DNA from: Escherichia coli
Lineage (GTDB): Bacteria > Pseudomonadota > Gammaproteobacteria > Enterobacterales > Enterobacteriaceae
NCBI RefSeq assembly: GCF_001677475.2
Contig: NZ_CP015229.1
Strand: one strand, 5' to 3'
DNA: 64,000 bases
The position numbers and the translations under genes were made by a program. Below, one piece after another: positions 15,224-21,184 of the stretch. How positions within the stretch are numbered: position 1 is the first letter of the stretch; each line of letters opens with the position of its first letter. Under the pieces are notes generated by a model. It was not told the origin of the DNA, did no database searches, and saw only the letters and a list, made by a program, of their open reading frames with translations.

Positions 15224-17467
15224 ATGGCGCGTTCCAAAACTGCTCAGCCAAAACACTCACTGCGTAAAATCGCAGTTGTAGTAGCCACAGCGGTTAGCGG
15301 CATGTCTGTTTATGCACAGGCAGCGGTTGAACCGAAAGAAGATACTATCACCGTTACCGCTGCACCTGCGCCGCAAGAAAGCGCATGGGGGCCTGCTGCA
15401 ACTATTGCGGCGCGACAGTCAGCTACCGGCACTAAAACCGATACGCCGATTCAAAAAGTGCCACAGTCTATTTCTGTTGTGACCGCCGAAGAGATGGCGC
15501 TGCATCAGCCGAAGTCGGTAAAAGAAGCGCTTAGCTACACGCCGGGTGTCTCTGTTGGTACGCGTGGCGCATCCAACACCTATGACCACCTGATCATTCG
15601 CGGTTTTGCGGCAGAAGGCCAAAGCCAGAATAACTATCTGAATGGCCTGAAGTTGCAGGGCAACTTCTATAACGATGCGGTCATTGACCCGTATATGCTG
15701 GAACGCGCTGAAATTATGCGTGGCCCGGTTTCCGTGCTTTACGGTAAAAGCAGTCCTGGCGGTCTGTTGAATATGGTCAGCAAGCGTCCGACTACTGAAC
15801 CGCTGAAAGAAGTTCAGTTTAAAGCCGGTACTGACAGCCTGTTCCAGACTGGTTTTGACTTTAGCGATGCGCTGGATGATGACGGTGTTTACTCTTATCG
15901 CCTGACCGGTCTTGCGCGTTCTGCCAATGCCCAGCAGAAAGGGTCAGAAGAGCAGCGTTATGCTATTGCACCGGCGTTCTCCTGGCGTCCGGATGATAAA
16001 ACCAATTTCACCTTCCTTTCTTACTTCCAGAACGAGCCGGAAACCGGTTATTACGGCTGGTTGCCGAAAGAGGGTACCGTTGAGCCGCTGCCGAACGGTA
16101 AGCGTCTGCCGACAGATTTTAACGAAGGGGCGAAGAACAACACCTATTCTCGTAATGAGAAGATGGTGGGCTATAGCTTCGATCACGAATTTAACGACAC
16201 CTTTACTGTGCGTCAGAACCTGCGCTTTGCTGAAAACAAAACCTCGCAAAACAGCGTTTATGGTTACGGCGTCTGCTCCGATCCGGCGAATGCTTACAGC
16301 AAACAGTGTGCCGCTTTAGCGCCAGCCGATAAAGGCCACTACCTGGCACGTAAATACGTCGTTGATGATGAGAAGCTGCAAAACTTCTCCGTTGATACCC
16401 AGTTGCAGAGCAAGTTTGCCACTGGCGATATCGACCACACCCTGCTGACCGGTGTCGACTTTATGCGTATGCGTAATGACATCAACGCCTGGTTTGGTTA
16501 CGACGACTCCGTACCGCTGCTCGATCTGTACAATCCGGTGAATACCGATTTCGACTTCAATGCGAAAGATCCGGCAAACTCCGGCCCTTACCGCATTCTG
16601 AATAAGCAGAAACAAACGGGTGTTTATGTTCAGGATCAGGCGCAGTGGGATAAAGTGCTGGTCACCCTGGGCGGTCGTTACGACTGGGCAGATCAAGAAT
16701 CTCTTAACCGCGTAGCGGGAACGACCGATAAACGTGATGACAAACAGTTTACCTGGCGTGGTGGTGTTAACTACCTGTTTGATAATGGTGTAACACCTTA
16801 CTTCAGCTATAGCGAATCGTTTGAACCTTCTTCGCAAGTTGGGAAGGATGGTAATATTTTTGCACCGTCTAAAGGTAAGCAGTATGAAGTCGGCGTGAAA
16901 TATGTACCGGAAGATCGTCCGATTGTAGTTACTGGTGCAGTGTATAATCTCACTAAAACCAACAACCTGATGGCGGACCCTGAGGGTTCCTTCTTCTCGG
17001 TTGAAGGTGGTGAGATCCGCGCTCGTGGCGTAGAAATCGAAGCGAAAGCGGCGCTGTCGGCGAGTGTTAACGTAGTCGGTTCTTATACTTACACCGATGC
17101 GGAATACACCACCGATACTACCTATAAAGGCAATACGCCTGCACAGGTGCCAAAACACATGGCTTCGCTGTGGGCTGACTATACCTTCTTTGACGGTCCG
17201 CTTTCAGGTCTGACGCTGGGCACCGGTGGTCGTTATACTGGCTCCAGTTATGGTGATCCGGCTAACTCCTTTAAAGTGGGAAGTTATACGGTCGTGGATG
17301 CGTTAGTGCGTTATGATCTGGCGCGGGTTGGTATGGCTGGCTCCAACGTGGCGCTGCATGTTAACAACCTGTTCGATCGTGAATATGTCGCCAGCTGCTT
17401 TAATACCTATGGCTGCTTCTGGGGCGCAGAACGTCAGGTCGTTGCAACCGCAACCTTCCGTTTCTAA
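15224..17467 (+). CDS. fhuA: TonB-dependent ferrichrome outer-membrane receptor
   Basis: 747 aa with signal peptide, TonB box DTITVTA, C-terminal aromatic residue (ATFRF). Confidence 0.97.
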   Translation: MARSKTAQPKHSLRKIAVVVATAVSGMSVYAQAAVEPKEDTITVTAAPAPQESAWGPAATIAARQSATGTKTDTPIQKVPQSISVVTAEEMALHQPKSVKEALSYTPGVSVGTRGASNTYDHLIIRGFAAEGQSQNNYLNGLKLQGNFYNDAVIDPYMLERAEIMRGPVSVLYGKSSPGGLLNMVSKRPTTEPLKEVQFKAGTDSLFQTGFDFSDALDDDGVYSYRLTGLARSANAQQKGSEEQRYAIAPAFSWRPDDKTNFTFLSYFQNEPETGYYGWLPKEGTVEPLPNGKRLPTDFNEGAKNNTYSRNEKMVGYSFDHEFNDTFTVRQNLRFAENKTSQNSVYGYGVCSDPANAYSKQCAALAPADKGHYLARKYVVDDEKLQNFSVDTQLQSKFATGDIDHTLLTGVDFMRMRNDINAWFGYDDSVPLLDLYNPVNTDFDFNAKDPANSGPYRILNKQKQTGVYVQDQAQWDKVLVTLGGRYDWADQESLNRVAGTTDKRDDKQFTWRGGVNYLFDNGVTPYFSYSESFEPSSQVGKDGNIFAPSKGKQYEVGVKYVPEDRPIVVTGAVYNLTKTNNLMADPEGSFFSVEGGEIRARGVEIEAKAALSASVNVVGSYTYTDAEYTTDTTYKGNTPAQVPKHMASLWADYTFFDGPLSGLTLGTGGRYTGSSYGDPANSFKVGSYTVVDALVRYDLARVGMAGSNVALHVNNLFDREYVASCFNTYGCFWGAERQVVATATFRF

Positions 17468-17517
17468 TTTCTCTTTTGGGGCACGGATTTCCGTGCCCGT
17501 TTCACAAGTTGGCTGTT

Positions 17518-19205: not shown

Positions 19206-21184
19206 GTAAACGAATTGCGCTTTTTCCGGCGTTATTGCTGGCGCTGTTAGTGATTGTCGCTACGGCGCTCACCTGGATGAACTTCTCGCAGGCGCTGCCG
19301 CGTAGCCAGTGGGCGCAGGCTGCCTGGTCGCCGGATATTGACTTCATCGAGCAGATGATTTTTCACTACAGCTTGTTGCCGCGTCTGGCGATTTCGCTGC
19401 TGGTGGGCGCGGGCCTGGGGCTGGTGGGCGTGCTGTTTCAGCAAGTGCTGCGTAACCCGCTGGCGGAACCGACGACGTTGGGCGTTGCAACAGGCGCGCA
19501 ACTGGGGATTACCGTCACTACGCTCTGGGCGATCCCAGGAGCTATGGCGAGCCAGTTTGCTGCGCTGGCAGGGGCTTGCGTTGTTGGCTTAATTGTCTTT
19601 GGCGTCGCGTGGGGGAAACGGCTGTCGCCGGTAACGCTGATTCTCGCGGGGCTGGTAGTGAGCCTTTATTGTGGGGCAATCAATCAGTTACTGGTTATCT
19701 TCCATCATGACCAGTTGCAAAGCATGTTCCTGTGGAGCACCGGAACGCTGACGCAAACCGACTGGGGCGGCGTTGAGCGTTTATGGCCGCAGCTGCTGGG
19801 CGGCGTGATGCTGACATTATTGCTACTTCGCCCGTTAACCCTGATGGGGCTTGATGATGGCGTGGCGCGCAATCTCGGTCTGGCCTTGTCGCTGGCGCGT
19901 CTGGCGGCGCTGTCGCTGGCGATAGTCATCAGTGCGCTGCTGGTGAATGCAGTGGGGATTATCGGCTTTATCGGGTTGTTCGCGCCGCTGCTGGCAAAAA
20001 TGCTGGGGGCGCGGCGTTTGTTGCCACGATTGATGCTGGCGTCGCTGATTGGTGCGTTAATTCTGTGGCTTTCTGATCAAATCATCCTCTGGCTGACTCG
20101 CGTATGGATGGAGGTTTCCACCGGTTCGGTCACTGCATTGATAGGTGCGCCGCTGCTGTTGTGGCTGCTGCCGCGTTTACGCAGCATTAGCGCGCCGGAT
20201 ATGAAGGTCAACGATCGTGTCGCGGCTGAACGCCACCACGTGCTGGCGTTTGCCCTCGCGGGCGGCGTGCTGCTGTTGATGGCTGTGGTGGTGGCGCTGT
20301 CGTTTGGTCGTGATGCGCACGGCTGGACGTGGGCGAGCGGGGCGTTGCTCGAGGATTTGATACCCTGGCGCTGGCCGCGAATTATGGCGGCGCTGTTTGC
20401 GGGCGTCATGCTGGCGGTGGCGGGCTGTATTATTCAGCGACTGACCGGCAACCCGATGGCAAGCCCGGAAGTGCTGGGGATTAGCTCCGGCGCGGCGTTT
20501 GGCGTGGTGTTAATGCTGTTTCTGGTGCCGGGTAATGCCTTTGGCTGGCTGTTACCCGCGGGTAGTCTCGGGGCGGCGGTGACGCTGTTGATCATTATGA
20601 TCGCCGCCGGACGCGGTGGATTTTCCCCACACCGCATGTTACTGGCGGGGATGGCGTTAAGTACCGCGTTCACCATGCTTTTGATGATGTTGCAGGCAAG
20701 TGGTGATCCGCGAATGGCGCAAGTGCTGACCTGGATTTCCGGTTCGACCTACAACGCGACCGATGCGCAGGTCTGGCGCACGGGAATTGTGATGGTAATT
20801 TTGCTGGCGATTACCCCGCTGTGCCGCCGCTGGCTGACCATTTTGCCGCTGGGCGGTGATACCGCACGAGCCGTAGGAATGGCGCTGACGCCGACGCGAA
20901 TTGCGCTGCTGCTATTAGCGGCTTGCCTGACGGCGACCGCGACGATGACTATTGGACCGTTGAGTTTTGTTGGTTTAATGGCACCGCATATTGCGCGGAT
21001 GATGGGCTTTCGACGGACGATGCCACACATCGTAATTTCGGCGCTGGTGGGTGGTTTACTGCTGGTGTTCGCTGACTGGTGTGGGCGGATGGTATTGTTT
21101 CCATTCCAGATCCCGGCGGGGCTGCTGTCGACCTTTATCGGCGCGCCATATTTTATCTATTTGTTGAGAAAGCAGAGCCGTTAA
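19202..21184 (+). CDS. fhuB: ferric hydroxamate ABC permease (fused double permease)
   Basis: 660 aa polytopic membrane protein with two homologous halves; GTG start overlapping the fhuD stop (GTGA). Confidence 0.95.
   Translation: MSKRIALFPALLLALLVIVATALTWMNFSQALPRSQWAQAAWSPDIDFIEQMIFHYSLLPRLAISLLVGAGLGLVGVLFQQVLRNPLAEPTTLGVATGAQLGITVTTLWAIPGAMASQFAALAGACVVGLIVFGVAWGKRLSPVTLILAGLVVSLYCGAINQLLVIFHHDQLQSMFLWSTGTLTQTDWGGVERLWPQLLGGVMLTLLLLRPLTLMGLDDGVARNLGLALSLARLAALSLAIVISALLVNAVGIIGFIGLFAPLLAKMLGARRLLPRLMLASLIGALILWLSDQIILWLTRVWMEVSTGSVTALIGAPLLLWLLPRLRSISAPDMKVNDRVAAERHHVLAFALAGGVLLLMAVVVALSFGRDAHGWTWASGALLEDLIPWRWPRIMAALFAGVMLAVAGCIIQRLTGNPMASPEVLGISSGAAFGVVLMLFLVPGNAFGWLLPAGSLGAAVTLLIIMIAAGRGGFSPHRMLLAGMALSTAFTMLLMMLQASGDPRMAQVLTWISGSTYNATDAQVWRTGIVMVILLAITPLCRRWLTILPLGGDTARAVGMALTPTRIALLLLAACLTATATMTIGPLSFVGLMAPHIARMMGFRRTMPHIVISALVGGLLLVFADWCGRMVLFPFQIPAGLLSTFIGAPYFIYLLRKQSR

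Follow-up and report, generated by a model that had tools for sequence, protein, structure and literature searches.

The ferric-hydroxamate (ferrichrome) uptake operon fhuACDB is described in Escherichia coli K-12 MG1655 (b0150-b0153; NC_000913.3 167484-173444), and it provides the reference for the operon examined here, at positions 15224-21184 of a 64,000-nucleotide E. coli stretch (NZ_CP015229.1), hereafter called the window. The cryo-electron microscopy (cryo-EM) structure of FhuCDB, 7LB8, contains one FhuD, one FhuB and two FhuC (Hu & Zheng 2021, PMC8660799). In this structure FhuB is built of an N-half with transmembrane helices (TM) 1-10 (residues 6-323) and a C-half with TM11-20, related by pseudo-two-fold symmetry and joined by a flexible linker (residues 324-347). 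The importers FepDG-C, FecCD-E and BtuCD have the same FecCD/BtuC type II permease fold, at 27-39% identity to either FhuB half, and their operons are similarly compact, with overlaps of 4 nucleotides (nt). They differ in that their transmembrane domains are separate polypeptides (heterodimers in FepDG and FecCD, a homodimer in BtuC), whereas FhuB is one chain.

The two-fold repeat of FhuB has been recognised since the gene was first sequenced and, like the operon, its overlaps and the receptor roles of FhuA, is textbook knowledge with little discovery value. A survey of ATP-binding cassette (ABC) uptake porters compared the two FhuB halves at 33 standard deviations (SD) and 31.5% identity and read them as a 'relatively recent intragenic duplication' (PMC3654945). 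The present analysis adds that both the repeat within FhuB and the overlap of fhuD with fhuB are ancient and family-wide, a small correction of emphasis with respect to 'recent'.

Identity and organisation of the operon

Positions 15224-21184 are, with near certainty, an intact, classical fhuACDB operon. Four open reading frames (ORFs) lie on the plus strand in the order fhuA-fhuC-fhuD-fhuB, flanked by mrcB and hemL, and are colinear with the annotated K-12 locus and with six more loci of E. coli. The first, fhuA (15224-17467, ATG start), encodes the 747-residue precursor of the TonB-dependent outer-membrane ferrichrome transporter and receptor. It is followed by fhuC (17518-18315, ATG), for an ABC ATPase subunit of 265 residues, fhuD (18315-19205, ATG), for a periplasmic hydroxamate-siderophore binding protein of 296 residues, and fhuB (19202-21184, GTG), for a permease of 660 residues. 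The fhuD start used here is ATG 18315, as in the K-12 annotation; the program-made ORF list begins at the upstream in-frame TTG 18312.

Domain and structure matches support these assignments. Pfam places the N-terminal Plug (PF07715, residues 76-180) and the 22-strand TonB_dep_Rec_b-barrel (PF00593, residues 254-716) domains in FhuA, ABC_tran in FhuC (E=4.8e-35), Peripla_BP_2 in FhuD and two copies of FecCD in FhuB. FhuA matches the crystal and cryo-EM chains PDB 8A60, 1BY3 and 2FCP over residues 34-747, and FhuB matches the cryo-EM chain 7LB8_B over residues 1-660. The gene names and operon order given in an earlier note on this DNA agree with the RefSeq K-12 annotation, the Pfam domains, the solved structures and the literature.

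Between the stop codons of mrcB and fhuB (6,180 base pairs, bp), the window differs from K-12 MG1655 (NC_000913.3 167265-173444) by 146 substitutions and no indels. All four ORFs are full length and of the same lengths as in K-12, with no frameshifts and no internal stops; a pseudogenised operon or a special allele was rejected on this ground. Nucleotide identity is 97.99% for fhuA, 98.50% for fhuC, 98.77% for fhuD and 96.47% for fhuB, and the proteins are 99.6% (FhuA), 99.6% (FhuC), 100% (FhuD) and 99.4% (FhuB) identical. Only 8 of 1,968 residues differ from K-12: three in FhuA (S183A, T220S and N401D in mature numbering; S216A, T253S and N434D in the precursor), one in FhuC (S188A), none in FhuD and four in FhuB (V48F, Q122L, Q345H and M387I). 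Silent changes exceed replacement changes, which indicates a functional operon under purifying selection. The four FhuB substitutions also separate the window from the chain in 7LB8, where none falls at a named FhuD-contact, gate or coupling-helix residue and Q345H falls in the disordered linker (PMC8660799).

Gene order, lengths and start codons are common to the window and K-12, as are the 50-nt fhuA-fhuC spacer with its hairpin, the TGATG and GTGA junctions, the promoter/Fur-box region and the flanking genes. The organisation thus shows no departure from that of an operon already known, and the locus was found in 5,424 of 5,426 complete RefSeq E. coli genomes. The strain carries an intact hydroxamate-uptake system.

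The two-fold repeat of FhuB and its age

fhuB encodes two FecCD/BtuC-type domains of ten TM each. The N-half (residues 1-335, 19202-20206) has one of the Pfam FecCD domains and matches HmuU (4G1U) over residues 11-326; the C-half (residues 336-660 and the stop codon, 20207-21184) has its best FecCD stretch at residues 358-657 and matches BtuC over residues 348-659, with E-values of about 1e-28. The coding region of the flexible cytoplasmic linker (residues 324-347, 20171-20242; linker limits from PMC8660799) holds Q345H. The permease gene lies beside those of its cognate binding protein (FhuD, Peripla_BP_2) and ATPase (FhuC, ABC_tran).

In a BLASTP comparison, residues 1-341 align with residues 342-660 at E=4e-27 (86/277 identities, 31%). 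The Smith-Waterman score of the halves is 331, against 53.6 ± 8.7 (maximum 90) for 1000 composition-preserving shuffles (z=32), and these figures reproduce the published 33 SD and 31.5% (PMC3654945). The self-alignment that the earlier note had suggested as a check is therefore highly significant, and the two FhuB peptides it quoted occupy residues 67-102 and 399-434; the BLASTP alignment places them in register, with 13 of 36 positions identical. A coupling-helix (EAA-like) motif is present in both halves, LMGLDDGVARNLGLALSLARL aligning with ILPLGGDTARAVGMALTPTRI; the coupling helices of 7LB8 are residues 209-226 and 542-559 (PMC8660799). The internal duplication also agrees with the solved two-half architecture of 7LB8.

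The description of the permease as 'visibly duplicated' holds for the protein but not for the DNA. A repeat search within fhuB returned only short, out-of-register GC-rich chance matches. Codon-aligned identity of the halves is 43.5% at first, 61.2% at second and 36.4% at third positions, where 33.0% is expected by chance; this near-chance value indicates that synonymous sites are saturated.

The repeat comes from an ancient duplication of a FecCD-type permease, and the fused form characterises a very large and old family. By Smith-Waterman score, the C-half is closer to FepG (412), FecD (397), FecC (394), FepD (369) and BtuC (354) than to the N-half (331). Over 288 common ungapped columns the two halves are the most distant of the 21 pairs formed by FhuB-N, FhuB-C, FepD, FepG, FecC, FecD and BtuC, with 27% identity. 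An exhaustive HMMER search with the N-half found 14,748 relatives among the 1.84 billion cluster representatives of a 50%-clustered global library. Among the best 150 of these, 128 are proteins of 640-700 residues, giving at least 128 distinct 50%-identity clusters of fused homologues. In almost every one of the 150 the match falls into two stretches, of which the best lies in the N-half of the protein matched (30-59% identity, 226-529 bits); the C-half of the query itself scores only ~96 bits against the N-half.

An enlarged tree points in the same direction. It comprises 95 sequences, among them 44 halves of each kind and the single-domain paralogues; a clade of the N-halves has 87.5% bootstrap, and an exclusive clade of N- and C-halves receives 8%. 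Mean Kimura distances are 1.09 between N-halves, 1.15 between C-halves and 1.76 between N- and C-halves, and 1.5-1.7 from each FhuB half to the E. coli single-domain paralogues. Two short N-like proteins that fall inside the N-half clade (P0201 and P0223) were considered as parts of a split FhuB and rejected, as they reflect truncation at a contig end and, probably, a frameshifted fused gene.

We give an even chance to the reading that fused FhuB is an ancient fusion of already diverged FecCD-type genes which defines a very large family of single-chain importers and in which the fhuD-fhuB overlap was co-inherited. The order of events may have been either of two, fusion of diverged neighbours or an in-gene duplication with long divergence afterwards, and both fit an ancient, family-wide fusion. 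The first order, in which FhuB arose from two adjacent and already diverged permease genes like fepD-fepG or fecC-fecD, is held tentatively, at slightly less than an even chance. The fecC/fecD and fepD/fepG pairs are adjacent in K-12 with 4-nt overlaps, and a small frame change would join such a pair; the halves have diverged from each other at least as far as paralogues encoded by separate genes, and each docks a different lobe of FhuD, as the subunits of a heterodimer would (PMC8660799). Against it, the neighbour-joining tree of the seven sequences named above is unresolved and star-like, with bootstrap values of at most 40%; it does not separate fusion from in-gene duplication, and it does not demonstrate orthology of the N-half with FepD/FecC and of the C-half with FepG/FecD. 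Moreover, no genuine split pair of N-like and C-like genes was found among the best N-half relatives, the two short candidates being fragments of fused genes.

A relatively recent intragenic duplication within fhuB, as worded in PMC3654945, is improbable. In its favour, the alignment of the halves covers about 280-330 residues with 30-33% identity and stands about 32-33 SD above random, the same figures (33 SD, 31.5%) were taken in that survey as a sign of recency, and rate acceleration after an in-gene duplication is possible. Against it, each half is as close to FepD/G, FecC/D and BtuC as to the other half, or closer, an in-register DNA repeat is lacking and synonymous sites are saturated, the N-halves of distant fused relatives match the N-half far above its own C-half (230-530 against ~96 bits), the tree groups N-halves together rather than N with C, and the short N-like proteins derive from fused genes.

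Gene junctions and control elements

Both gene overlaps claimed in the earlier note are present, as is the GTG start of fhuB that it gave. At the fhuC/fhuD junction (TGATG, 18313-18317), the TGA stop (18313-18315) and the ATG start (18315-18317) share base 18315, and the sequence reads ...TAT TGA TGA GC.... At the fhuD/fhuB junction, the GTG start of fhuB (19202-19204) and the TGA stop of fhuD (19203-19205) form the 4-nt overlap GTGA (19202-19205), within GGAGGTAAAGCGTGAGT. A GGAGG Shine-Dalgarno sequence (19191-19195) stands 6 nt upstream of this GTG, so that the whole element spans 19191-19205. No evident Shine-Dalgarno sequence precedes the fhuD start.

These junctions are conserved. The 30-mers around both are identical in seven E. 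coli loci (the window, K-12 and five further strains, four of which were picked to span all fhuA allele classes), although the fhuCDB genes of these loci differ from those of the window by 0.9-3.8% and their FhuA proteins fall to 62% identity. The 120 listed matches of a search with full-length FhuB were dominated by orthologues from Escherichia, Citrobacter and Salmonella, too close for deep phylogeny but suited to cross-genus checks of the junctions. In Citrobacter koseri and Salmonella enterica the first junction reads TAATG, the stop having changed from TGA to TAA with the same overlap geometry, and the GGAGG and GTGA arrangement is kept. In distant metagenome loci with fused FhuB (36-59% N-half identity), the D/B overlaps are 4, 4, 8 and 4 nt and the C/D overlaps 11 and 4 nt. 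Overlaps of this kind are also routine in the region: the colinear 82 kilobases (kb) of K-12 annotation contain 11 same-strand overlaps of 1, 4 or 8 nt, namely the two fhu junctions and folK/pcnB, yadW/erpA, btuF/mtn, lpxA/lpxB, lpxB/rnhB, rof/yaeP, yaeQ/arfB, trmO/rcsF and metI/metN. The 1- and 4-nt overlaps are thus conserved yet routine for the gene family and the region.

The arrangement suggests that translation of fhuD is probably coupled to that of fhuC by termination-reinitiation at TGATG, and that translation of fhuB is probably coupled to that of fhuD at GTGA with the assistance of GGAGG. Such coupling would fit a complex of fixed composition, D1:B1:C2. RNA folds around the two junctions are no more stable than those of shuffled sequences (z=-0.3 and +0.3), with no sign of a start-occluding structure. 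It is unlikely that the overlaps are incidental compaction without a role in expression, the genes being translated independently. Such overlaps are commonplace in the K-12 stretch and fhuB carries a strong GGAGG of its own, but the junction 30-mers are invariant among loci that differ by 1-4% elsewhere, the overlap geometry outlasts the change of stop codon in other genera, the D/B overlap recurs in distant homologues, fhuD has no clear Shine-Dalgarno sequence and the stoichiometry of FhuCDB is fixed.

One metagenome contig (L016, 583-9495) carries, in order, FecR, a TonB-dependent receptor with an STN domain, fhuC, fhuD, fhuB, a fhuF-like gene and an ABC exporter-type gene; its ABC genes all overlap by 4 or 8 nt, which suggests that tight packing is typical of the fused-FhuB family. 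In Salmonella enterica (L012, 4983-5075), an in-frame insertion of ~25 codons, with palindromic sequence like that of REP (repetitive extragenic palindromic) elements (GCCGGATAAGGCG...), stands in fhuB directly after the GTGA. For this FhuB, gene callers choose a non-canonical start codon 18 nt farther on, and the resulting product of 679 residues belongs to a cluster of 5,734 member sequences.

It is established that Fur regulates fhuA. In the window, the ~160 nt that immediately precede the fhuA ATG do not differ from K-12 and include a promoter-like and a Fur-box-like site. A hairpin 3' of mrcB (15020-15046, plus strand; 11-bp stem, -24 kcal/mol, z=-6.0 against shuffles) is likely the mrcB terminator and marks the upstream edge of the fhu control region. 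The candidate sigma-70 promoter (15132-15161, plus strand) consists of TTGCGA, an 18-nt spacer and TATTAT, and scores 9/12 in a consensus scan. Just 3' of its -10 element, the putative Fur box CTTTATAATAATCATTCTC (15167-15185, plus strand) matches GATAATGATAATCATTATC at 14 of 19 positions. It is one of nine strand-specific matches (seven distinct sites) with up to five mismatches in the 64-kb window; with up to three mismatches the Fur consensus has no match in the window. The four fhu genes are most likely transcribed from this one promoter under Fur control.

The 50-nt fhuA-fhuC spacer contains a GC-rich hairpin, GGGCACGG-ATTT-CCGTGCCC (17479-17498, plus strand; centroid -17.5 kcal/mol, minimum free energy -17.8 kcal/mol, z=-3.0). 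Its stem is invariant in the seven E. coli loci, Salmonella and Citrobacter, the loops vary (ATTT, CTTG or TTCG), and no real T-run follows the stem. The most plausible role would be that of a partial terminator or a 3'-end/RNA-stability element, which would probably leave FhuA in excess of FhuCDB.

At the other end of the operon, a 10-bp GC hairpin (21190-21212, unstranded; -20.6 kcal/mol on the plus and -22.8 kcal/mol on the minus strand, z of about -5.4) fills the 34-nt fhuB-hemL spacer (21185-21218). It is the top terminator-like site on the minus strand and is likely a bidirectional terminator, probably ending both convergent genes. The 34-nt spacer is common to the window and five other E. 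coli strains, whereas the K-12 spacer (173445-173601) has 157 nt and contains palindromic elements of the REP type. An Rfam scan of positions 12000-24000 at E<=1 returned no RNA family, and thus no known riboswitch or small RNA in or around the operon.

FhuA allele, proposed mechanism and surrounding sequence

FhuA is the receptor for phages T1, T5 and phi80, colicin M and albomycin. The earlier note had recorded this role, in agreement with the literature, and had held the surface-loop allele to be relevant to phage susceptibility. The N-terminal sequence of the mature protein, AVEPKEDTITVTAAP, is the same as in K-12 and contains DTITV, which we take to be the TonB box. The surface-loop limits used here reuse those of Endriss & Braun. 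As tabulated, they are L3 243/247-273, L4 318-339, L5 394-419, L8 552-558, L10 640-654 and L11 689-701 (PMC10373560 Table S1). Compared with K-12 across these six loops, the sole difference is N401D in L5, so that the loop comparison reveals an allele of the K-12 type, with one conservative loop change, and not a special one. N401D lies four residues before P405, the known surface-exposed insertion site. S183A and T220S are outside the listed loops and, judged from the strand alternation counted from L3, would lie near periplasmic turns T1/T2.

Divergent alleles from the E. coli strains C25, Ecol_656, 2009C-3133 and E2348/69 encode FhuA proteins 89%, 89%, 74% and 62% identical to K-12, respectively. 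A183 is found in all four and D401 in three, which makes K-12 the odd one out at both sites. These alleles carry indels and clustered substitutions in L4, L5, ~460-475, ~500-515 and L10, whereas the window allele has none of them. The divergent strains share with the window the same locus, an identical downstream hairpin and the same fhuCDB organisation, and the pattern agrees with the published mosaic evolution of fhuA (10.1101/320069). Among the 5,424 genomes with the locus, fhuA is 95-99% identical to that of the window in 3,698, 90-95% in 96, 80-90% in 1,067 and 60-80% in 563. The window FhuA, by its sequence, is the majority K-12-type receptor allele, present in ~68% of complete E. coli genomes.

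Two of the divergent loci also differ upstream. In Ecol_656 (L009, 1-4281) and E2348/69 (L011, 1899-6780), a fimbrial operon (chaperone, usher and subunits) lies directly upstream of fhuA. In E2348/69 it stands between mrcB and fhuA; in the window and in K-12, a spacer of 219 nt is all that separates these two genes.

Since none of the substitutions touches L4, L8 or the remainder of the pb5 and ferrichrome contact surface, sensitivity to T1, T5, phi80, colicin M and albomycin would be expected as far as FhuA is concerned. Phages that depend on FhuA, colicin M, microcin J25 and 'Trojan horse' compounds of the albomycin type should thus meet their receptor in this K-12-type FhuA, provided that it is not masked by surface polysaccharide. 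Sensitivity to phages, colicins and antibiotics depends also on lipopolysaccharide/O-antigen, TonB and immunity functions.

In the proposed mechanism, FhuA, a plug-and-barrel TonB-dependent transporter, would move ferrichrome and related hydroxamates across the outer membrane. FhuD would bind the siderophore in the periplasm and dock on FhuB, whose single 660-residue chain, with its two homologous ten-helix halves, replaces the permease dimer of other type II importers. Two FhuC ATPases would power import in the D1:B1:C2 complex. FhuB itself represents two copies of an anciently duplicated FecCD-type permease gene, now in one reading frame and inherited by a large family.

Nothing contradicts the identification of the operon, and its weak points all concern functional inferences; identity, gene organisation, domains, the homology of the FhuB halves and the conservation of the junctions are read directly from the sequence. 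Several points nevertheless weigh against the functional picture. The Fur-box match is 14/19 only. The fhuA-fhuC hairpin has no U-tract, which makes its role uncertain, and its invariant stem offers no covariation. The absence of an obvious Shine-Dalgarno sequence at fhuD fits translational coupling but does not prove it. Finally, strain factors such as O-antigen shielding or TonB could alter phage sensitivity despite a K-12-type FhuA, because a distance of 1.3-3.3% separates the source genome from each complete RefSeq E. coli.

This distance holds beyond the operon. Among the 5,426 complete RefSeq E. coli genomes, the closest is 98.3% identical over 15000-21260, 96.7% over 1-15000 and 98.7% over 32000-56000, and the window is colinear with K-12 157300-217302 at 96.0-98.4%. 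The source seems to be an Escherichia lineage absent from the complete RefSeq set, for instance a deep branch of E. coli or one of the cryptic clades. No insertion sequence elements suggestive of Shigella were found in the 64-kb window.

Other differences from K-12 lie outside the operon. Positions 1-5100, on the minus strand, hold a fimbrial usher/chaperone-type cluster (ORFs 463-3054, 3103-3861 and 3918-4496) at the position of K-12 yadCKLM-htrE-yadVN; its identity to htrE and yadV is only ~66%, and for the upstream block the best matches in E. coli begin only at 5133. yaeI (K-12 184257-185069) is absent, and ~130 nt of unrelated sequence (31828-31955) stand between the yaeH and dapD flanks. 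MrcB (PBP1b, 12473-15004), encoded directly upstream of the fhu control region, has one Asp fewer than K-12 in its N-terminal acidic repeat and three substitutions.

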